Assembly (NCBI GenBank): GCA_013265495.1
Contig: MU058065.1
Coordinates: 3,389,003-3,453,002 of the forward strand
Direction: 5' to 3'
DNA length: 64,000 bases
DNA from: Vicugna vicugna
Taxonomy: Eukaryota
In this document: piece by piece, positions 3,262 to 54,237 of the stretch
How positions within the stretch are numbered: position 1 is the stretch's first letter
How the letters are laid out: each line of letters starts with the position of its first letter
Position numbers and translations under genes: made by a program
The notes under the pieces: model-generated
The model's input: the letters and a program-made list of their open reading frames with translations, nothing else
What the model was told of the DNA's origin: nothing
Database searches by the model: none

Positions 3262-3385
3262 GGGGGAGGGCATAGCTCAGGGGTAGAGTTCTTGCCTGGC
3301 ATGCGCAAGGTCCTGGGTTCGATCCCTAGTACCTCTATTTAGATAAATAAGTAAATAAACCTGGTTCCCGCCCCCTAATAAAATA
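3262..3385 (+). mobile_element. Camelid-type tRNA-derived SINE (Vic-1-like)
   Basis: GGGGGAGGGCATAGCTCAGGGGTAGAG (A box) ... GGTTCGATCCC (B box), followed by an A-rich tail. Similar to the copies at 46224 and 54092. Confidence 0.85.
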
Positions 3386-21100: not shown

Positions 21101-23324
21101 AAAAAAAATGTATCATTCGTTTAGGTTTTGAAATTAATGATTATGTTTTGTTTTAAAATAAAATTAGGTACTTACTCAGTTAAGAACCACATCAAACATT
21201 TGGTAATGGTAGTTGTGATGCTCTAAATCCAGTCCTAACTTAGGATCCTTTAACTTTAATCACGGTCCTCAGATAAAGAGGAACCAAGATTCAACATAAA
21301 ATATGCCCGAGATATTGTCATCAGGTAACCGAAGAGCTAAAAACCACTTACAATTGTTTGGATCTACAACGATAAAAAGAGATCTTCCAAAACATCTTGT
21401 CAAGAAACAACAAAAAGGGTAGAGGGATAGCACACAACATCTGCTTTTCTTAAGACTTCCCTGAGCGCTCCAAAGAATACATTTTTGGCCAAGGTAAAAA
21501 GAGATCTTTTTGAGGCCAAAATCTTTCAATGCATTGATAAATTTCCACTAGTTTAGAAGAACGTTATGTATTTTAAGCTCTTGGCATCTCACATGGTTGT
21601 TTGGACAGAGCAGGAAAAGGTGTCCTGTAATTTCACACGGGGTCCTTACATGGACACGTGGAGGAAGCCATACTGTAGTATTTAAGAAGGCTTTGGAGTA
21701 CTTCACATACTTTAATGAATATTCCCTAAGGTAAGGATCATGACCAATACAGCTGATCTTTGGGACCTTGTTACAAACATGCCAATGGTAATTATTAAAA
21801 AAAAATTCTTACATGGAACAATGTTAGTAATCTTAGTAATTAATATTCCTCAAAAGAACAGAATATCCTCCTAGGAGAATTTTTTTCTATAAAATAGTAA
21901 TGGTTTAATTTTCTCTAAACATAAAACTACTACCTTCTCTTGTAAACAAAACCATGCAGAAAATACAGAAAAGCATAAGAAAAATTTTAAATGTCCAGAG
22001 AGAACCACTGGTAAGATTGGGTTCATCACGCCGGATCCTTTAAGCATGTTTTTTCACAATTAACTAACTGGAGCTACAATTTGTGTATTTAATAAAAATG
22101 TTCAAGACCAAAAAAAAATTGTTCAAATATATGCATATACAGTTTTTAAAACTGATTATAAGTATCATTTTTTATATTTCCCTTTTTTTCGGTTGAACAA
22201 TATATCATGGATGTGTCTCCATGTCTAGAAATATATGGAATTTTAATAACTCTGAAGATACCCTTTGGATATTATGATTAAGTTTTTCCCTGTGTAGAAC
22301 ACAGTTGAAAAAAAACTTTTACAACTAGATATTTGACAAATACTCTCTGGTGATGAAAACTACCTGTGGGGGACAAGCATAAATCTAGTATATAGGTGCA
22401 GAGGGTCCACCACTAGGGGAGTGGATACTGTTGATCTTGAGACTAGGAAAAGCAGCTATTAAAACATGAGTTTGTGAGTTTCTACCGAGCTTCCCTTGCC
22501 ACAGCCTTGGCCTTTGCCACTTGGAGTCCAATTGAAACAAAGAGGGCTCTTCTTTACTTTTTATGTATATCAGAGACCACGCTCTCTTTTATCATTTTGA
22601 ATTTTACAATGTTCAGCTATTCTCAGTGAAATTACACACAGGCAAAGTAAACCTCAAAAATTATATTTTAAGCTAAATAATCTCTTCGTTTTGGTTTACA
22701 CTGTTCCAGCTAAAGCCATGCTGCAGGGAACAAAAATAAATGAAACAGTAGAAACGGGAGTGTAGACCTCAGATGGCTCTTTCAAGATGTCTCGTGGTTC
22801 AAGAAAGACAAGAATGTCTGACTCCAGGAGCCCTAGGGCTGAATGCAGATGCTCCGTGCTGGGTAAGGAGGAGGTTGAAGATTTTAAGCGTGTTTGTAGA
22901 CAGAGAAAAAATGACAGCTGAAAGGGGACTGAAGACTTGATGTGTGAATTTGACCTACTTTGCAACACCAACCTGAAGTCACTTAACAGAAAACAACAAA
23001 AATATGTTTTAATGCAAAAATCCTGCAGTTATAAAACAAGTCAGATGAACTAAAGTTAAGGGCAAACTTTTTCTGACCCTCCAACATTTCTCTGTGTTCT
23101 CCCTGGGCAGGTAGCCGGGGCCAGTGAGCAGGGGGTGTACAATCAACCGCTGTAGCTCTGGAAGAAGACACAGCAGCATGGCTGGCTCAAGAGGCGCCTC
23201 AGAGGAAAATCTTCCAAAGGGTGTTTTGCATTTCCTGGGTTTCCTGCAGTGTGCTGACTGCTGTCAGTGTAAGCTGTGAGAAGGATGACAGGACCAATTT
23301 TTATAAGGCAGTGTTGCTTTTTTA

Positions 23325-24015
23325 AAAAGCTTTTTTATTTTGAAATAACCGTAGATTCACAAGAAATTGCAAAGCTAGTTAAGAGAGGTCCTGTAGACCC
23401 TTCACCCATTTCCTTCCACTGGTTATTTATGTCTCACATAACTACACCTCATAATTACATACCCAAACCAGCAATCTGACGTTGGCACGGTGTGTGTGCA
23501 TAGTTTTATGACAATTTACCACATGTGCAGACTCACTAACCACTACTGTCACTGGGTTATAAATCTTACCTTACCTCAGAGATATCCCTTGTTATAACCC
23601 CCTTAGAGTCATGCCCCCCTTCTTAACCCCTGGCAATCACTAACCTGTTTCCCTAGTTACCATTGTGTCATTTCAGCAATGTTAGATAAATGAAATTAGA
23701 CAGTATGTGATCATTTGAGATCAGCTTTTTCACTCTGCCTAACGCCCTTGGGATCCATCCAAGTTGCTGGGTGCATCAGTGGGTCATTCCTTTTGATTGC
23801 TGGGTAGTGTTCCACAGTATGGATGTATCACAGCTCACAGAGCCATCCATCTAGTGAAGGACTTTTTTGGAGGTTTCTGGTTTGGGGGCTGTGACAAATA
23901 TAGGAGCCATGAAAAATCACGTATGGGCTTTTGTGTGAATAAGTTCTCATATCTCTGGGATAAATGCCCTGGAGTGCAAATGTGGGTGGGTTGCATGGTA
24001 AATGGAGGTTTAGTA
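23325..24015 (-). mobile_element. Old L1 (L1MC/MD-like) 3' region
   Basis: TTTATTTTGAAATAACCGTAGATTCACAAGAAATTGCAAA...CCCTGGCAATCACTAACCTGTT...CATCCAAGTTGCTG...TCTCTGGGATAAATGCCC. Confidence 0.8.
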
Positions 24016-25606
24016 CTAACTTCTTTTTTTTTTTTTTAATATTTATTTTATTTTATTACATACATATATTCATTGTCACATTTAAAGAGTAAATGAATTT
24101 CTCTTTTCAAAAGTGATTTTCCCATCATAGAGGATTTCTCTGGTGAATCAACTGGGCTTCGGGTCAGGAGGGGTGGGCGGGGGGTGGGGGGAAGAAGCAC
24201 TGATCACCAAATAAATTGTTCTAAACCTAAGAGAGAGCATGGGCCTCATTATGACACATGGGCAGCATAATCTATGCAAAGACACCTGTCTATACAGGAA
24301 AATACTCAGGATAAATGTGGTAAGTCCCATTTCCACTTTGCCAATGATACTTGAACAGTAAGCACAAAGAATGCAGGATTAGACCATTTATAGCCAAACA
24401 TGCAAGGAAATTTCAGATTAGGTCCTTCAGGGCCAAAATTTTTGGACAATAAAATATCACCATGGCATCAGATGGATTGAGATCAAAGCAAAGTTAAGTT
24501 ATCAGTGGATGTTAGTCTCTCCTCTCCAAGAGTAATTATTTACACAGGAATATACCACTGAGTAAATATTGGGACTGTTCATTCCAGTCCTTCTATTTGA
24601 GGACCACGGCAAGAAGGCAGTCCTGAAGCCTCCTCAGGAACCCTGCAGCCAGGGAAGACCCAAGGCAGAGAGGATTCAGGGAGGACTCCAAAGTTGTCCG
24701 CCACCCTCGGCAACGTACAACAGAACTAATCCATTTTCCTGTTTCACTGCCATAATATCATAAAGCGGGGAGGTCACACCCTCTAAGAATATATTGCCTT
24801 TCTGGCTCAGAGTTGCCGGGATTATTTGCTTTCCTTAACTCTTTCAGAACCCCCAGCCCCTGCCCAAGGCTACTGAAGGATCACAAGCATTTCACAGGCT
24901 ACAGATTTTGAACCTGACCTGAAAGGAGCAGGCAGAAGGACAAGGGGACGAGGCACGACTTATCTAAACCCACAGATGCTTCCAAGGAATTATCACTCCC
25001 TTTTCTCGCCCTTCTCTCCCTCAGACTCCAAATATTTTCTCTATTTTCTCTTTACAAGGAAAAATCAGAAATACATTGGTTGTCAGCTTATGTTGATGGA
25101 TGTATAATGGAAGATTCAGGTGCACAACGAATAAACTGAGAAAACCATCAAATGTCACTAAGAAAAACACCCCCCACTAAAATCACAGTGGAAAAGTGGG
25201 TACAGTATATGACCAGATCATTCATGAAAAGAATAATACAAGTATCTGCTAAGCATAAGGTAATGACTCAACCTCATTAAAGATAAAAGAAATACAAAAC
25301 TAATAATGAGATGCTTTCATTCCGCTATCAATTTGGCAGATCACTTTAAAAAATGGATGACAAAAAAAAGGGTTAAAAAAATGGATGACAAAATTGGTGA
25401 AAATGTGCAGAGAAACAAGATATTTATGATGCCTCAGAACATCAGCCTACAAGACACTTATTAATTAGAAAGAGAAAAACATTTACCTGGAGGACACCAC
25501 TTCAACACTTCTAAAGGTATGTCAAGTTAAAATTACTGGGAATGGAGTGAGTCAACATTGTGTGCCTCCTGGTATGATGCACTAAAATAGATACAATATC
25601 TTTCTT

Positions 25607-25626
25607 GGGTTAGGGTTAGGGTTAGG
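25607..25626 (+). repeat. Short interstitial telomeric sequence GGG(TTAGGG)2TTAGG
   Basis: Exact GGGTTAGGGTTAGGGTTAGG read directly from the sequence. Confidence 0.9.
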
Positions 25627-26114
25627 TTTTTTTTTTTCCTTTTTGTTTAATATTTAGGAGATTTATTAAAGCATCTTATCACAAAGATGGAAACAAGTAC
25701 ATATCAGAAACATGCAGCCATCATCTTCCACAATCCAGTTAAAATGTTATATATTTTTCCTGTTTTCATAGCTGTAAACTGCAGAACTTACACCCAACTG
25801 GCTCACTCTAAATATTTAATTCATTCTTCCTGAAAGTATCCAGGGCAGCAGATAACCAAAATGCAAACTATTATTTAAAGAAAGTACAAAGCTAAGAAAG
25901 AAAATATGCTGAGAGAAGTCCCTCCCACCCCGCCTCCTCAAAGGCAAACAACAGCACTTTGCTCTGGCTTAACCTGGACTATCTTCAAAAACTATTCAAA
26001 CGTAATATACTGAACAAAACAAAAAATATCCCCAAACCTGACTTTTAATCGATGCCCAGAAAAGTTGTTAGTGTTTGGAAGTAAATCCTTAAACAAAGGA
26101 AAATGTACTAAAAA
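25627..26114 (-). pseudogene. Processed-pseudogene fragment (mRNA 3'UTR retrocopy; parent gene not identified)
   Basis: Poly(T) at 25627-25645, with TTTATT (AATAAA on minus) at 25662-25667 at canonical spacing. ~470 bp of AU-rich, non-repeat-like sequence that splits an old L1. Confidence 0.7.
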
Positions 26115-26661
26115 TCCTGCTAAAAATACAAAACCTGAATGTAACTGTGAGGAAACATCAAACAAATCCCTACTGAGGAATATTATACAGAAAAACTGGC
26201 CTGGACCCTTCAAGAGTCAAAGTCAGGAGAGGCAAAGAAAGGCTGAAGAATTTCCAAATTGTACTGAAGAGACATATCAACTAAATTCAATTAATGACTC
26301 TGAGTTAGACCTAGACTAGCGAAAAGAGATTCATAGAGCAATTCATGAAAATTGAATAAGGCCCGTAGATGACATACTATTTCCTCGTTTTGATAATTGC
26401 ACTGTGATTATATACGATGCTAACATTAGGAGAACATTGGTCAATGGTTCATAGGAATTTTTTGTACTACTTCTGCAAATTTTTCAGAGTCTAAAATGAT
26501 TTCAAAATGAAAGTTAAAAGTAAAAACTTTTTACAGTCAATACTCGATGCTCCCTTTATTAGTAAAAATCAAAGTGTCCATCAACAGGAGAATCAATAAA
26601 CAGTCGTATATTCATGCAATGGATGCTACATGGCATGAAAAGTGTACATCTTACACGATTC

Positions 26662-27169
26662 TGATACCGAGCAAGATCCTGTGGCCCCCCTCCCCCAACT
26701 CCTGCTTCTTGTTTCTAGAAAAGCTGAAATCTCCCTGTTCGCATGCTAAGTGACACACCCACGGTGCTATGACAGTTACGAAGCTGCCCACAAAAGGCCA
26801 AAAAGTGGGTGAGGCCCAATTCTTAGAAATCCCTGCCCTTTCCCCAAAATAGTTGGAATAATTCTCCTACCTGTTAGCATATGAAACTACCCAGCCCACA
26901 AAAATTAACTGCCCCCACACCTTGTGGCAGATCTCACTCTCCTAGACGATCATGCACTCTGGGGCCACCTCTTGCCCTCTGAGATGGCCCGCACTCTGTC
27001 TATGGAGTGTGCATCTCCCTAAATAAATTTGCTTTCACTTTACTATGGCTTGCTCTTGAATTCTTTCCTGCACGAAGCCAAGGACCCTCACTTGGTGGGG
27101 CACGTCCCAGGGACTCACTGGAGTCCCTGGGACGTGACCATCCTCACGTGCCCCCATCTTCCTGCAACA
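26662..27169 (+). mobile_element. ERV1 solo LTR (MER41-like)
   Basis: TG...CA ends, AATAAA at ~27022, and U5 motif GAATTCTTTCCTGCACGAAGCCAAGGACCC. Homologous to the LTR at 27374. No clear TSD. Confidence 0.75.
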
Positions 27170-27373
27170 CTCTGAAATAAGCTTCTCATACGGTTCTCGG
27201 GAAATAATTTAATATTTAAACTCCAGTTGAAGTACAAAGATAAACAATAAAATGATCTAAATACATACTTAAGGAAGTGGTTAAAAATTTTAAGTTACAT
27301 AATAAACTATAATACAACTATTAAATCACATAATTAAAGAATATTCAGTGACGTGAAGAAATGCTCATGATAT

Positions 27374-28038
27374 TGAGACAGGAGGGAAGGAGACAGGGCA
27401 GAGCCATTCAAAGAATGACAGCAATTAACACCAAATTGGTGGAAGATTTAACTCCCAGTAGGCCTTGAGGATCAAGACTGGCAGGATATTTGATTTCCAG
27501 TAGACCTTGAGCCTCATTATATGCCCATTGTAATATATTAGCATGACAAATAACATGCCCACAGGCCTCATGACAGTTCCAAGGCTGACCATAAAAGTTC
27601 AAAGAGTGGGTTGTGGCCCAATTCCTGGGACTCTCAGCCCCTTCCCCAGGGTAGTTGAAATGGTCCCCTACTTGGTGTGGCCTGTAAAGCTACCGAGCCC
27701 ATAAAAACTGGCAACACCATGCCCTGTGGCCTCACTTGCTCTCTTCTGAGAGGTCTCCAGAGACGGCCCGCACTCCGTCCATGAAGTGTGTATCTACTGC
27801 TCAAACCTGAGCACCCAACCCATACACCTCTTGGCCTTTCTCTTGCCTCCTGAAACAGCCTCACTCTATGAAGTATGTATCTCTCTAAATAAATCTATCT
27901 TTACTCAACTGTGGCATGATCTTGAGTTCTTTCCTGCATGAAGCCAAGGATCCACACTTGGTAGGACACGTCCCAGGGGCTCAACTAAGACCTGAGACAC
28001 GGCTCTCCTCTTGCCCCACGTTCATTTCCCTTCTATCA
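27374..28038 (+). mobile_element. ERV1 solo LTR (MER41-like) with 4-bp TSD
   Basis: TGAGACAGG...CTATCA ends, TSD ATAT at 27370-27373 and 28039-28042, AATAAA at ~27888, and TTCTTTCCTGCATGAAGCCAAGGA. Confidence 0.85.
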
Positions 28039-30589
28039 ATATAAGTGGAAAAAGCTGATCCCAATATTATATGTACATGTTGATAACTTAAATATTCTAT
28101 ATTTTCATAGAAATAAAAGGAAGTGATACTCTAAAACATTAGTATTTTCCTCTGGGTTGCAAAATTATGACAGGATTTTGTTTTCTTCTTTACACTTTTG
28201 GCCCCTTCCACTTTTTCTAACATAACTATGTATTCCTTTAATAGTTAAAAAGCATAAAAATTAAATTTCAAAATATTTGATACATTCCTAGTCGAAAAAA
28301 AAAATCAAAAGATCAAAACTCAGAAAGGAGAAGAAAACCAACCGACTTCTAACAGAGCCTTTCACTGGTCGTGCTTGTAACAAAATCTTCGATGTTCTAT
28401 TTCAGGGCCACATTTTAAGTCACCTTTCAGGAGGGAGTGATTTTTTTTTGAACTGCAAAAAAAAAAAAGCTCACCTCCACCCTCTCACCACCAATTAAGC
28501 CCTGGCCTCTCAACGGCCAACATTTCACCCCCAGGAGCCTTCTTGCTCACCATCAACCCCTCTTCCTCCTACCCAGAAGGAGTCCCTGCTTTGATGGGCT
28601 GTTTCCCATAAAATTCTATGAGAACAAAAGTTTTTTGCCACTTGGGAAAATCAAAACATACCCGGAGATGACACTGAGGACATTTCTCTTGCAGGCATGA
28701 TGACCAAATACAGGGCATGAACAAAAGCAAGAATTAATCCGGGGTTTTGTATTGTTTCATTTTGTTTTATTTAAACAGTAAATTTCTGCCAGTAAATTTC
28801 TGGAGGACTTCAGGGAATATTCAAAATTGCTCAAGGAAACCATTGCTCCCCTTCCCAAGATTCCCAGCCCCGCCCTCAAGATCACAAGTCATTAACTCCT
28901 TTCCCTTCCTTCCACCCTGGCCCACGCCTGAGGGTTTTTTCTTTGTTTTAAAAACACTTTGCTAATTAGTCCACACAGTGTCTGAAGCAAGAGTGAGGGG
29001 AAAAAATATGAATCACAGTCTTGACTGGATTTTTCAATACCTCATTTTCTTAGTATGCAGAAAGTAGCTCACCACACAAGCAGAATTATAAAGACCAGTG
29101 GATGCTCCAATTTTAGCATTTCTATAGATTTCTAACACAGATAGGAGCATTCTAAATGTGTTGCCAGGAAACAGTGACAGCATTTTCTTCCAGGAAAATT
29201 GTGTGCCAAGTAAAATGCAAGAAGAATGACTTTGCTCAAGACATAATTCTTACCAGGGCAACAGAGAATTTAATCATTAACTGTAACAGAAGTGAAAGTG
29301 CATTTATTAAAATTTCAAAGTTTTAACATCTTAATTCTAAGTCAAAAAAAGTTAAAATTAGATTAGGCTTGCTGTCAACAGCTTTTTTAAAACAGTGATT
29401 TAATCACATTTAAAAAGTTGACGGCTGTTTCACTATCACCAGCTTTTCTCAAAACCTGAATTTCCTTCACGGCGTCCAACAGAAAAAAGGAAACCAAAAA
29501 AAAAAAAAGTTATTCATTAATCAAAACCATCATCAGTTTCCTGGATAAAAAAGGAAGGAGCAAACACTGAAAAAAACATTAAGTTAAAAGAAGACACAGC
29601 CAGACAAAGTGGTCAGGGATAAAATGATCTCCGTTGTGACAGGAGAGAGCAAGTGATGACATTTCTGCCAAGATAGGAAAGGTTGAGTTTAGCACACCCT
29701 TACATGCTCCATCCAACACGGAGTGTTAAGTACCTGTCATGTTCCAGGCACATGTTAGACCCTGGGATGCACAGGTGTGGAAGAGAAATCTGTTCCTGCT
29801 CCCCAGCCCTGCTATTCCCAACTACAAGAAAATGCTAGAAATAAAGATCTAATTGCAATTTGATGCAAGACTTCAGAGCAGTAGAGACCAGCACATTCTG
29901 GCTGCAAGGGACAGCCACTCAGTTTGTTGCATAATTTATTAGAGGTAAAGAAATATGCCAGCAGCCACAGAGCCTGTCCCCCTTCCTGAGTGTCACCCTG
30001 AACCATCCTGAGAGTCCACAGTCCCTCCAGCACCGCCACCCTTTGCAGTGGAGTCTGTCGCTCAAGACTTGGCTTCTTTCTCCACTCAGAGTTTTTCCTT
30101 CTGCTTTTGCCCATCGCTGTGGACTTTCTGCCCTCCTCCCTACTGTAGGCATCTGCTTTCTCTTTCTCAGGGGTTCTGTTTAGGACCTCTGCTTTCTCTC
30201 TGAAGTCCATCACCACTCTACCATTCGGTTCCTATGCCGGGGTCTTCCATTCAGACTCCTTAAGGGAGAAACCTGGGTGGCTTTGTTAGTCACCCTGTGT
30301 TATGCAGCATCCCAATTAGCTGAAGTGCCCACATGGGGACATTTCACAAGATGTTGACCAGGCTGCCTTTGATTCAAGGGCTGATCTGCAATCCAACCAG
30401 CTTCTAGGCACAACAGTGGGGTCCCATGATTCAAAACGTGGCAACCTATGTTAAGAAACCACTTGTGGTCTTTCCTCCTAAGGCACTGTGGGTGAAGGAG
30501 ACACTCTAAGTATCACCAAAACCCAAAAATAGATACTGAGGTTTGATTTCATGTTAGTCCCATGCCTGCTACTGTTTAAACATAACATC

Positions 30590-31274: not shown

Positions 31275-31630
31275 AATTTTTTTTTTACTATAGACTTTAT
31301 TTTTTAGATAACTTTTCAACTTACAGAAAAATTTAGAACATAGTACAAAGAGCTCTCCTATATTCCCCATCCTTCCTGTACACGCTGCAGCCTGTTTCCT
31401 CGTCTTTAACATCTTACTAGTTTGAAACATTAGTTACAATACTCATGCATAACTTTTAACTAAGGTCTACACTTTATTCAGACCTTCTTAGTTTTTGCTG
31501 AATGTCCTCTTGTCCGTTCTAGGGCCCCATGCAAGACACCACAATTACATTTAGCCATCATCTCCCCTTAGGCGCCTCTTGGCTATGACAGTTTCTCAGA
31601 CTTGTGATTGATGACCTTGACAGATTTTAA
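31275..31630 (-). mobile_element. Old L1 (L1MC/MD-like) 3' end
   Basis: TAGACTTTATTTTTTAGATAAC...TTACAGAAAAATT...CAGTTTCTCAGACTT...GATGACCTTGACAG. Confidence 0.75.
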
Positions 31631-32849: not shown

Positions 32850-33680
32850 GCTGTGTTGCCCCCGGGGGTGGGGCCACCCGCCCCCGCCGTCTCGGGGGGA
32901 TCCGCGCACGCCCATCCCCGCGCGGCAGACTCGCCTGGACCCGCAAGTCCGCAGGCTGCACCCTCCCCCCACCCCTGAGAACACCTGGCCCACGGTTGGT
33001 TACCTGTGGGGCCGCGACTCTCCGCAGCCCATTGGCCGGCCCCCCGGTGCCCTTGTGGTTGGCTGCGAGATGCTCGAGCCCCAGCGTCCGCGCCGAGCCC
33101 TCCGCGGGGCCCAAGGCGTTCTCGCCGGGGCCTTCATCCGGCGCCGGGAAAAGCCCGCAACGACGCTGGAAGCGGGCAACGAGCTGAGAATCCTGCAGGC
33201 TCCGCAGCAGCTCGGCCATGGTGCACCCGGGGCTGTGCGCAGCCGCTGCCGCCGCCACCTGGTGCACTCTGCTCGGCCGTCCCTCCTGCCCTAGCCTCAC
33301 CGGGCCCGGCGCTCGGGGTGGAGGGCGGGCGGGCGGGGCCCGGGGCGCCAGCCAACAGGTGCGCCGCTCGGGTCCTAGCGCCCGCCCTCCGTGCGCGGGC
33401 GCCCAGGTGTTTGCCTCCACCTTGAGCCCGGCACGCCCGCCCTCCTTTCCTTCCCAGCGGGCCTAGGCGGGCTCGGGTGGTTGCTGGCGTCCGGCCCGCT
33501 TGGAACTGAGCGAAAGAGTACAGGTATCTACACTGCGCCTCCCTACGCCTGATCGCGCCTCCACCTCTCCCGGCTGGTGCAGAAATGCCACCTAATGGGG
33601 AGCGGCCAAGCTCGTGTGGACCTGCGCGAGTCCATCCTGGCGTGCGCCGGCTGATCCCGTTTCTTTTAACTCTTCAGCCC
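32850..33680. promoter_or_regulatory. CpG island / GC-rich promoter and 5'UTR of SGPP2
   Basis: Dense CpG and very high GC against an AT-rich, CpG-depleted background. Overlapping GC boxes (GGGCGG) at ~33323-33338 and no obvious TATA box. Confidence 0.85.
33004..33219 (-). CDS. SGPP2: SGPP2 coding exon 1 (sphingosine-1-phosphate phosphatase 2, N-terminal 72 aa, phase-0 intron follows)
   Basis: Translation MAELLRSLQDSQLVARFQRRCGLFPAPDEGPGENALGPAEGSARTLGLEHLAANHKGTGGPANGLRRVAAPQ matches the recalled mammalian SGPP2 N-terminus. ATG at 33219 is in a strong Kozak context (GCACCATGG), and the exon ends at the donor CAG|GTAACC (33004/33003). Confidence 0.95.
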
Positions 33681-45754: not shown

Positions 45755-46465
45755 GCAGGAGGCAGAATTCTCAGACAGCCCCCAGGGTTCCTAGCCATGT
45801 CCCCTTCTCCCACGTACACACACCTTCTCCCAACTTTTCAACCAAATGCTAGTCTAGATACTACTGGGAAGGGATTTTGCAGATGTAGTTAAGTTTGCAA
45901 ATCAGTTCACCTTAAGATGGGAGATTAACCTAGTAGGCCTGACCTAATCACATAAACCCTTCAAATCAGGATCTAAGGGAGAGAGACACAGGAAGTCAGC
46001 GATTTGAAAGACAGGGGGGATCTGGTGTGAGAGAAGTCCTCCACTGCTGGGTTGAAGGTGAAGGAGGCAAGGAATGTGGGTGGTCTCTGGGAGCTGAAAG
46101 CAGCTTCTGGTTTATGACCAACAAGTGAATGGGGACCTCAGTCCTACAACTGCGTTCTGCTACAACCACCTGAGCTTGAAAGAGGACTCTGAGGTGCAGA
46201 AAGGAATGCAGACCACATGACATTTTTTTTTTTTTAAATGAGGGTACTGGGGATTGAACTCAGGACCCCATGCATGCTAAGCACATGCTCTACCACTGAG
46301 CTATACCTTCTCCTACCCAGATGACATCTTGATCTCAACCCTTAGCAGAGTATTTAGTTCAGCACTGTCCAGACTCCTGACCCTTAGGAACTATGAGATA
46401 ACAAATTCATGTTCTTTTGAACTAAGTTTGCAGTAATTTGTGTGCAGTAATAGAAAACTAACAGA
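45755..46465 (+). mobile_element. MLT1 (MLT1E-like) solo LTR interrupted by a SINE
   Basis: GGGATTTTGCAGATGTAGTTAAG...GGGGACCTCAGTCCTACAAC...CTAAGTTTGCAGTAATTTGTGTGCAGTAATAGAAAACTAA. Confidence 0.8.
46224..46316 (-). mobile_element. Camelid-type tRNA-derived SINE inserted into an MLT1 LTR
   Basis: Reverse-complement A/B boxes with poly(T) at the left. TSD-like CCACATGACAT (46213-46223) / CCAGATGACAT (46317-46327). Confidence 0.85.
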
Positions 46466-47501: not shown

Positions 47502-49444
47502 TTTTTTAATTTTTTAATTTAATTTAATTTTGTTTTACTTTTTTTTATTAAGTGATAGTCATTTTACAATGTTATGTCAAATTCTAGCATAGAGCACAAT
47601 TTTTCAGTTACACATGAACATATATATATTCATTGTCACATTTTTTTTCACTGTGAGCTACCACAAGATCTTGTATATATTTCCCTGTGCTATACACTAT
47701 AATCTTATTTATCTATTCTGCATTTTAAAATCCCAGTCTGTCCCTTCCCACCCCCCATCCCCTTGGCAACCACAAGTTTGTATCCTATGTCTATGAGTCT
47801 GTTTCTGTTTTGTATTTATTTATTTATTTTTAGATTCCTCATATAAGCCATCTCATATGGTATTTTTCTTTCTCTTTCTGGCTTACTTCACTTAGAATGA
47901 CATTCTCCAGGAGCATCCATGTTGCTGCAAATGGCATTATGTTGTTGGTTTTTATGGCTGAATAGTATTCCATTGTATAAGTATACCACTTCTTCTTTAT
48001 CCAGGCATCTGTTAATGGACATTTAGGCTGCTTCCATGTCTTGGCTATTGTAAATAGTGCTGCTATGAACATTGGGGTGCAGGTGTCATTTTGAAGTAGG
48101 GTTCCTTCTGGATATATGCCCGGGAGCAGGATTCCTGGGTCATATGGTAAGTCTATTCCTAGTCTTTTGAGGAATCTCCACACTGTTTTCCACAGTGGCT
48201 TTCCTTGCTTCCCTCTCCCACTTTTAATGATTTAGATGTCTTCTTTTACAATTTTGTGTTTATTCTTTTTGTAATTCATGGCAGTTATCTCCTTTCCAGT
48301 TATAAGTTTCTCATTTTTGTAGCATCCTGCTTCTTTTCTATTTAGAGTAGACCTGTCAATATTTCTTTCAGCATGGGTTTAGTGTCGCTAAATTCTTTTA
48401 GTTTTTGCTTGTCTGTGAAGTTCTTTATCTCTCTTTCTATTTTAAAGGCTAGCCTTGCTGGATAGAGTATCCTAGGCAGCAACTTTTTTTCATGCAGGAC
48501 TTTGAATATATCTTGCCACTCCCTTCTGGCCTGTAGTGTTTGTGTAGAAAAATCAGCTAAGAGCCTTATGGGGGTTCCCTTGTAACTCACTCTTTACTTT
48601 TCTCTTGCTGCCTTTAGGATTATTTCTTTATCCTTGACTCTGGCCATCTTGATTATGATATGTCTTGGTGTGGGTCTGTTTGGGTTCTCCCTGTTTGGGG
48701 CCCTCTGAGCCTCCTGTACTTGGATATCTGATTCCATTAGGTTTGGGAAGTTTTCAGTCATGATTTCTTCAAAAACCTTTTCAATCCCCTTTGTTTTTTC
48801 TTTCCCTTTCTGGAACCCCTATTATGCATAGATTGGCACGCTTTATATTATCCCATAGGTCCCTTATATTGTTTTCATTGTTTTTTATGTGTTTTTCTCT
48901 CAGCTGTTCTGATTGAGTGCTTTCTGTTGTCCTGTCCTCTAGGTCACCTATTCATTCCTCTGCATTGTCTAGCCTGCTTTGTACAGCCTGCAGGTCAGCT
49001 CTCATCTCAGCAAATGAGTTTGCTAATTCTACTTGGTTCTTATTTATAGCTTCTATTTCATTTTTGACATTTTATATCTCTAAACACTATTTCTTTTAGT
49101 TCCTTCAGTACTTTGATCACTCCTTTTTTGAAATCTTGATCTAGTAGGCCATCAATGTCTATTTCCTTGATCAGGCTTTCAGGGGATTTCTCTTGATCTT
49201 TTGATTGGGAGTGGTTCCTCTGCTTCTTCATATTGCTTGTATCTCTCTGGCACTGTGGCTTAAGGAGTATCAGTTATCTAGTTCTCCTGGAGACGGTGTG
49301 CTCTTAATGATTTTATCGAGAGGTCTTTGTGTCTTCGCCCTGTTTTGCAAACTCAGCTTGCTGTTTCCAGAGGCCCTCTGTTGGCGCCCTCGTCTGTGCT
49401 GCTCCCAGTGGCTGCCAGCTAGCAGATAGTACCCCCTCCTAACA
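47502..49444 (-). mobile_element. L1 insertion: partial 5'UTR, disrupted ORF1 (49231-48342), inter-ORF, then ORF2 C-terminus and 3'UTR (most of ORF2 missing)
   Basis: ORF track gives the ORF1p C-terminus (YKGTPIRLLADFS...ARREWQDIF...RILYPARL) and the ORF2p C-terminus (LPYDPGI...TCTPMFIAALFTIAKTWKQPKCP) only ~160 bp apart. TSD TGTGCTTTTA at 47492-47501 and 49445-49454. Confidence 0.92.
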
Positions 49445-51685: not shown

Positions 51686-53080
51686 TAATAAAATGGACAA
51701 CAGAAGAAATAGACAAATTCCTAGAAATGTACAATCTCACTAGACTAAAGCAGGAAGAAATAGAAAATATGAACAGACCAATTACCAGTAATGAAACTGA
51801 ATCTGTAATTAAAAACTCCCAACAAACAAAAGCCTAGGACCAGATGACTTCACAGGTGAATTCTACCAAGCATTTAGAGAAGGATTAACAACCATCCTTC
51901 TCAAACTATTCCAAAAAATTGCAGAGGAAAGAAAGATGCTTCCAAATTCATTCCACAAGGCCAGCATCACACTGATATCAAAACCAGACAAAGATATCAC
52001 ACACACACGAAAGAGAAATTACAGGCCAAAATCACTGATGAATACAGATGCAAAAATCCTCAACAAAATATTAGCAAGCCAAATCCAACAATACATTAGA
52101 AGTATCATATACAATGATCAAGTGGGATTTATCCCAAGGATAAGTGGATTTTTCAATATCCACAAAATAATCAATGTGATACATCACAGTAACAAACTGA
52201 AGGATAAAAACTACATGATCATCTCAATAGATGTAGGAAAAGCTTTTGACAAAGTTCAACATCCATTTATGATAAAAACTCTCCAGAAAGTGGGCATAGA
52301 GGGAACATACCTCAGCATAATAAAGGCCACATATGACAAGCACACAAGTAATATTCTCAATGGTGAAAAGTTGAGAGCATTTCCTCTAAGATCAGGAACA
52401 AGACAAGGATGGTACTTCTATTTAACATGGTATTGGAAGTCATGGCCACAGCAATCAAACAAGAAAAGGAAATAAAAGGAGTCCAAATTGGAAAGGATGA
52501 AGGAAAACTGTCACTATTTGCAAATGACATGATAGTCTATGTAGAAAATCCTAAAGATGCCACCAGAAAACTACTAGAGCTCATCAATGAATTTGGTACA
52601 GTTGGAGGATAAATTGTATTCTGAAAATCATAAGAAACTGATGAAAGAAATTGAAGATGACATAACAGATAGAAAGATATACCATGTTCTTAGATTGTAA
52701 GACTTAATATTGTTAAAATGGCTGTGGTACCCAAGGTAATCTATAGATTCAATGTAATCCTATAAAAATACCAATGGCATTTTTCACAGAACTACAACAA
52801 ATAATTTAAAATTTATATGGAAACACAAAGAGCCCAAATAGCCAAAATAATCTTGAGAAAGAAGAACAGAGATGGAGGAATCACGCTCCTTAACTCCAGA
52901 CTTTATTACAAAGCTACAGTTATCAAAACAGTATGACAATGACACAAAAACATACACATAGATCTACTGAACAAAACAGAGTCCAGAAATAAACTCACAT
53001 ACTTATGGTCAATTAATCTATGATAAAAGATGCAAGAGTATACAGTGGAGAAAAGACAATCTTTCAATTAGTGGTACTGA
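51686..53080 (+). mobile_element. L1 ORF2 fragment (reverse-transcriptase region), frameshifted
   Basis: ORFs 51936-52475 (LPNSF..ASITLI.KPDKD...[19 protein letters not shown]...DQVGFIP...[10 protein letters not shown]) and 52409-52612 ([11 protein letters not shown], a mutated FADD motif). Confidence 0.95.
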
Positions 53081-54091: not shown

Positions 54092-54237
54092 GGGGGAGGG
54101 TATAGCTCAGTGGTAGAGTGGGTGCTTAGCATGCATGAGGTCCTGGGTTCAATCCCCAGTACCTCCACTAAAAATAAATAGATAAATAAACCTAATTACC
54201 CACCTAAAAGCAAACAAAACCAAAAACAAAAAAAATG
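54092..54237 (+). mobile_element. Camelid-type tRNA-derived SINE with TSD
   Basis: GGGGGAGGGTATAGCTCAGTGGTAGAG...GGTTCAATCCCCAG and an A-rich tail. TSD TTTAAAAAATGA at 54080-54091 and 54238-54249. Confidence 0.9.

Follow-up and report, generated by a model that had tools for sequence, protein, structure and literature searches.

Within the window, by which the whole 64-kb stretch of analysed mammalian DNA is meant, the plus strand reads, in order, old repeat, a telomeric array of composition (GGGTTA)3.3, a run of eleven T residues (T11), about 476 AT-rich bases, and old repeat again from approximately position 26114. A minus-strand exon (33005..33219), which starts at 33219, encodes an N-terminus resembling that of SGPP2 and is taken to be the first coding exon of an SGPP2-like gene; a Pfam search with this exon returned no match. 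The insert lies about 7 kb downstream of the exon, in sense orientation with the gene, and array and insert are probably located in an intron of this camelid gene. As the insert runs in the sense direction of its host gene, its AATAAA could serve as a weak, putative intronic polyadenylation signal. The signal and A tract of the insert (25627-26113) were also noted as a possible intronic polyadenylation or internal-priming site of the SGPP2-like gene. Most likely the junction is a neutral fossil within the intron, and taken by itself the locus is probably without function, save for the possible intronic polyadenylation signal.

Several other elements were recorded in the window. Two related elements in the same orientation (26738-27183 and 27538-28056; 332 of 437 aligned bases identical) are presumably LTR-like, and a near-perfect 19-base hairpin is present at 27098-27139. 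Younger L1 ORF2 pieces lie in opposite orientations at 47839-48700 (minus strand) and 51813-52472 (plus strand), the second matching Pfam RVT_1. Three tRNA-type Rfam matches (3266-3337, 46239-46310 and 54096-54167) are possibly the heads of tRNA-derived SINEs; the one at 46239 adjoins a T13 run.

The telomeric array occupies 25607..25626 with its G-strand on the plus strand. It comprises 20 perfect bases (100% matches and zero mismatches in TRF) and ends at its 3' side in AGG, directly before the T run. The first few G/T bases of the array may be host bases in register with the repeat, the presumed host consensus suggesting 3-4 such bases at the break. A perfect telomeric stretch of 20 bases is expected 5.8 × 10−7 times per 64 kb under independent bases and 1.4 × 10−7 times under an order-4 Markov model, both expectations leaving slippage out. 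The site is internal: no subtelomeric degenerate array surrounds it (no other telomeric row among the 64 TRF rows for the window), and single TTAGGG words are depleted in the window (23 observed, 43.4 expected). To the right of the array, no telomere-register run of at least 7 bases occurs between 25627 and 27000. Microsatellites derived from poly(A) are A- or purine-rich, and an origin of the array from such a microsatellite was rejected on this ground.

Local slippage was considered as a further source of the hexamers. By this account a GGGTTA-like unit of the host, either carried along or arisen by mutation, was multiplied by slippage beside a retrocopy that never had a target-site duplication or has lost it. 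The array is only 3.3 units long, and it is the longest of four perfect primitive hexamer arrays of at least 14 bases in the window, the other three measuring 14-17 bases. The left flank moreover ends in a pyrimidine run followed by G, which resembles a degenerate L1 endonuclease site. Against this, the multiplied unit is one out of 350 possible hexamer classes, stands in the orientation predicted by the chemistry and sits exactly at the junction, and priming at the pyrimidine run would have placed the poly(T) directly after it instead of 20 bases later, where it is seen. Slippage of a host unit is accordingly regarded as quite unlikely.

The T11 run (25627..25637; an A tract on the minus strand) directly abuts the telomeric array. 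It is followed by an AATAAA polyadenylation signal at 25662..25667, minus strand, 24 bases before the A tract, and by a 3' UTR-like insert of about 476 AT-rich bases on the minus strand (25638 to about 26113), the 5' boundary of which is approximate (26102-26114) and was drawn from what is presumed to be the host repeat. The insert has a G+C content of 34%, and its longest open stretch in six frames is 60 codons. The original prediction had placed a telomeric run at 25607-25626, followed by poly(T) and by about 470 bp of minus-strand 3' UTR-like sequence with AATAAA, in the polarity G-strand then poly(T), and each of these elements was recovered at the locus. Retrocopies are recognised by a poly(A) tail with a signal 10-30 bases upstream, and both are present (A11, with AATAAA 24 bases upstream). 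Since the AATAAA stands 24 bases before the A tract and no open frame exceeds 60 codons, the insert resembles the 3' terminus of an RNA that had been polyadenylated. A coding insert was rejected, as no frame of the six is open for more than 60 codons. Telomerase RNA was rejected as well, for at the Rfam gathering threshold only the three tRNA-type matches are obtained in the window, none of them at the insert. Comparison of the insert with a young L1 3' piece in the window gave no match.

It was also considered that the repeats stem from the donor: a source locus or RNA that already read an A tract followed by CCCTAA repeats, in the form of a genomic A tract next to a small interstitial telomeric run, could have been copied whole by templated insertion or 3' transduction, with the same outcome in sequence. 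At 11 bases the A tract is short, and it is preceded by A-rich sequence, like many genomic A tracts. However, an AATAAA lies 10-30 bases upstream of only 2.0% of window positions (and of 3 of the 21 A/T runs of at least 10 bases), and its canonical distance here favours a truly added tail; in addition, the donor would have needed a rare telomeric run right behind its poly(A) site. We hold such a donor to be improbable.

With 21 long A/T runs in the window, the chance that the array adjoins a T run in this polarity was calculated, after the fact, at about 6.6 × 10−4, and a link between repeats and insert is therefore likely. The adjacency statistics are post hoc, and a scan over many genomes will gather some coincidences. 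In sum, the telomeric repeats and the insert are probably linked.

Both flanks were assigned to old L1 sequence on the plus strand. The left flank (25200..25606, start approximate) is an old L1M 3' region, recognised by a weak in-window match at 25329-25417 and otherwise presumed, and the right flank (26114..26526) continues as an old L1M 3' end, its distal part assigned by alignment and its proximal part presumed in the same way. Two other old L1 3' ends of the window, at 23333-23421 and 31282-31349, could be aligned with the distal right flank (about 26424-26526); one of the two lies downstream of an ORF2 C-terminus match. We take the two flanks to be one interrupted L1MC-type element that has lost few bases. 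When the five old or young L1 pieces of the window were compared with the flanks, matches fell in the distal part of the right flank or in the ORF2 piece that follows it; none of the five matched the left flank near the junction or covered the insertion point. The proximal right flank gave a single long alignment with gaps (z 6.3 against 30 shuffles), which was judged unreliable. A motif search with the left flank gave one match in metagenome contigs (L001), none in prokaryote genomes and one in viral contigs (L002); as copies of the host repeat both were rejected as chance, L001 matching little past the motif and L002 nothing. Another old L1 3' end with a remnant of the ORF2 C-terminus was seen at 23319-24037 (minus strand), where an A14 tract interrupts or precedes it and an AATAAA lies upstream.

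At up to 20% mismatch, no target-site duplication abutting both junctions was detected, and the absence of a target-site duplication put forward in the original prediction thus holds for abutting duplications at this level. An 8/11 match present at the junctions was rejected as a decayed duplication, since so much divergence does not fit with an array free of mismatches. Segments 25577-25587 and 26103-26113 form a 10/11 match, but 19 bases separate its end from the left junction; among up to 3000 random pairs of boxes, 23 gave a comparable match (about 1%), as did 32 of 3000 shuffles, the boxes having been chosen after the match was seen. It may mark a templated joint at the 5' end of the insert, or may be due to chance. 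A TTTT/A-type endonuclease site was not found at the tail junction, where the T run is preceded by the AGG of the array.

The explanation to which we tentatively give first place is that one end of a break in the germ line was lengthened by telomerase, and that the resulting G-strand end then served an L1 reverse transcriptase as the starting point for copying a polyadenylated RNA. A double-strand break would have arisen in the old L1 3' end in the germ line and been closed in one repair event by two reverse transcriptases. The 3' strand of the left end, which probably offered the telomerase template a few in-register G/T bases, would have gained about three repeats, too few for a stable telomere. 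An L1 ORF2p particle with a cellular polyadenylated RNA in trans could then have primed on the single-stranded G-strand end and, by endonuclease-free priming, reverse-transcribed its tail together with about 476 bases of its 3' end. End-joining, at the cost of few bases, would finally have connected the cDNA with the right end of the break, and a target-site duplication would be missing for this reason. Among single readings this is the most likely one, and we infer the order of events.

Several observations argue for telomerase followed by L1. Target-primed cDNA has poly(T) as its first bases, attached to a free 3'-OH, and what precedes the T run on its 5' side here is the telomeric G-strand, the product of telomerase. 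The same polarity, which follows from priming chemistry, is reported for the poly(A)-telomere junctions of endonuclease-independent L1 insertions at telomeres. The array has zero mismatches, as do young interstitial telomeric inserts (PMC2246262; here and below, articles are cited for the available parts of their text). Human telomerase adds repeats at Cas9 breaks, and its unprotected products there are expected by the authors to lead to interstitial insertions (bioRxiv 2022.10.31.514589). Endonuclease-independent L1 inserts at uncapped telomeres can retain the poly(A) tail (review PMC4700185), and a 3' overhang is required for L1 priming, as for telomerase (PMC3649969).

Other points speak against the same reading. 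The array has only 3.3 units, some of them possibly host-derived. Primer ends are preferred by L1 in the order T>C>A>G, a terminal G being worst, and a primer with three terminal Gs was not used efficiently (Monot et al., PMC3649969). The AGG end, which the original prediction does not mention, is thus a poor L1 primer: either priming would have been inefficient, or a GGGTT end would have lost one of its Gs afterwards. According to the available text of PMC3649969, endonuclease-independent L1 insertion has been seen only in cell lines deficient in end-joining; natural human endonuclease-independent cases are defined by an absent poly(A) tail in the available text of PMC1920257; and among about 350,000 I-SceI junctions in cultured cells, the part of PMC7215372 at hand reports zero telomeric insertions.

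The sequence would be identical if the pieces had been captured. In this alternative, the cDNA was either primed on a real telomere, on a free telomeric fragment or on DNA derived from telomeric RNA, or synthesised apart and ligated to an end that telomerase had extended, and the break was then patched with the piece. This would still be one event, but with the enzymes not acting in turn on the site, and it dispenses with an AGG end as primer. Telomeric-fragment capture and telomeric-RNA copying have both been proposed for interstitial telomeric inserts (PMC2246262, PMC7215372), and RNA-templated patches free of duplications are known as class 2 templated insertions (PMC5110952). Such patches, however, typically lack a poly(A) tail and signal in the available description of the class (PMC5110952). 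Plain end-joining, moreover, would give the observed polarity only half the time. If the in-register G/T bases presumed at the break are genuine, synthesis on site would be favoured over a patch. Capture in either form is on balance considered unlikely. When telomerase followed by L1 is taken together with capture, one linked event with a true telomeric origin is the outcome towards which we lean. Of the original proposal of telomerase and then L1, the part concerning one linked event is thus favoured by the anatomy, the polarity, the lack of an abutting duplication and the chance calculation, while the order of the two enzymes is inferred only.

A second candidate scar was found 240 bases upstream of the main array. 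It is a perfect 18-base direct duplication on the plus strand (25348-25365 and 25376-25393), which starts at a TT/AAAA site, i.e. at an L1-endonuclease-like site. Between the copies lies a 10-base filler of four A residues and a single unit in telomere register (25369-25375), oriented like the main array. No other near-tandem perfect duplication of at least 14 bases with filler occurs in the 64 kb; the window contains 11 telomere-register runs of at least 7 bases, and the chance of a filler holding such a run was put, after the fact, at about 0.0025. The segment 25348-25393 resembles the 'duplication' class of telomeric inserts (PMC2246262) and germ-line cases with 14- and 19-base duplications (PMC11293586). 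A telomere-register filler of the same polarity at this distance counts in favour of telomerase followed by L1. One telomeric unit in a filler nevertheless proves little, and 25348-25393 could just as well be a tiny insertion that L1 made from the end of any RNA. The fullest version, namely a fixed germ-line fossil of telomerase followed by L1, with an mRNA primed on the G-strand overhang, the chromosome rejoined rather than capped by a new telomere, and the 18-base duplication as a second mark of telomerase, left at an L1-endonuclease cut within the same 300 bases, is put forward with a little more reserve than telomerase followed by L1 as such, as a possibility only.

The neighbouring duplication also bears on whether two separate events struck one fragile spot, that is, whether a retrocopy was inserted and a short telomeric insertion occurred earlier or later at its junction. 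The duplication suggests that the region was cut more than once, the L1 endonuclease cuts TTAGGG repeats in vitro (PMC10887698), T tracts may break, and rare coincidences are picked up when many genomes are scanned. Insertion into an existing array should, on the other hand, have left repeats on the right side or a duplication, and no run of at least 7 bases is present between 25627 and 27000; array and insert furthermore look equally undecayed. Two independent events are rated as very unlikely.

Sequencing runs were screened with 93 sampled words from 25450-26300. Twenty-four runs were listed, of which 20 hold part of the words and 4 next to none; 14 of the 24 listed runs, which carry six organism labels and come from six studies, contain at least half of the words (0.81-0.91). 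The 821 31-mers of this stretch divide into 0.35 that lie in the flank only, 0.54 in the insert only and 0.11 that touch a junction. The highest share, 0.91 of the sampled words, belongs to a run that may be the window's own sample. As 0.89 can be reached without any junction word, the shares show that flank and insert exist in the samples, not that they are joined, and for the same reason they show neither fixation nor polymorphism. No RNA run is listed as a holder; six runs guessed to be RNA contain 0.13-0.26 of the words and carry no weight as evidence. The small difference between the best share and the share reachable without junction words leaves room for an assembly artefact, in which a mis-join placed a 3' UTR and telomeric words inside a repeat. 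Such an artefact would require two mis-joins that left the host in order on both sides, together with a correctly placed signal and tail, and is deemed highly improbable.

The junction is treated as real and unusual, and the two-enzyme explanation as plausible. That telomerase acts at internal breaks and that L1 can prime on telomeric ends independently of its endonuclease, the latter in repair-deficient cell lines only, are known separately; if the linked origin holds, the novelty lies in the joining of both known processes at one natural locus. It would follow that L1 priming on telomeric ends occurs in the normal germ line, that cellular RNAs can serve as its templates, that it can save a new telomere whose formation was aborted, and that G-strand-poly(T) junctions form a findable class of scars in mammalian genomes. 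Telomerase followed by L1 predicts that, genome-wide, short telomeric runs beside retroposed tails will be strongly biased towards G-strand-then-poly(T) and will lack duplications. In a literature search that covered mostly titles and abstract openings, and few subscription journals, no interstitial telomere-to-mRNA-retrocopy junction was found.

Short interstitial telomeric sequences (Nergadze et al. 2007, PMC2246262; Santagostino et al. 2020, PMC7215372) resemble the locus in their short, perfect and internal TTAGGG run. Within this group, the class 'with sequence addition' is alike in that foreign sequence was added at an old-repeat site with little apparent loss. Additions account for 22 of 130 rodent telomeric loci, plus 6 with addition and deletion (PMC2246262), and 13 of 66 horse telomeric loci carry added sequence (PMC7215372). 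With 3.3 units the present array falls below the four-unit cut-off of these catalogues (PMC2246262, PMC7215372). Pure additions in the rodent tables range from 1 to 226 bases (PMC2246262), whereas the insert of about 476 bases is about twice as long as the largest of them. The additions are called random or derived from telomerase RNA in the available parts of the catalogues, while the addition described here has its own tail and signal; the sources of the rodent additions are not given in the available text of PMC2246262, and both the rodent and the horse sets could include retroposed pieces.

Rodent and horse TERC-ITS share with the locus the combination of telomeric repeats and a reverse-transcribed RNA piece at one break, and their arrays go down to 13-27 bases (PMC2246262). 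In TERC-ITS the TERC piece precedes the repeats, whereas here the RNA piece follows them and starts with poly(T). The sequence added in TERC-ITS is telomerase RNA; the present insert has no Rfam match and a G+C content of 34%.

Endonuclease-independent L1 insertions at dysfunctional telomeres (Morrish et al. 2007 and Kopera et al. 2011, as cited in PMC4700185 and PMC3649969) are likewise joined by a poly(A) end to telomeric repeats and likewise show neither an endonuclease site nor a duplication. A poly(A) end on telomeric repeats, the G-strand as primer strand and the lack of a duplication are all found at the present locus. In the available texts, however, the insertions concern L1 reporters at real chromosome ends in repair-deficient lines, while here a non-L1 RNA is found at an internal and apparently inherited site.

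Among RNA-templated insertions, the locus shares tail and signal with class 1 templated insertions and processed pseudogenes (PMC5110952), and the absent duplication with class 2 and non-classical L1 insertions (PMC5110952; Sen et al. 2007, PMC1920257). It is not a classical retrocopy, having neither duplication nor endonuclease site, and it differs from the non-classical L1 and class 2 insertions, which are defined in the available text by an absent tail (PMC1920257, PMC5110952), in that a tail is present. The term 'telomer' is absent from the available text of Sen et al. 2007 (PMC1920257), and according to the available part of Onozawa and Aplan 2016 (PMC5110952) none of the polymorphic templated insertions contained telomere sequence. 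The locus thus mixes features of class 1 and class 2 and adds telomeric repeats to them.
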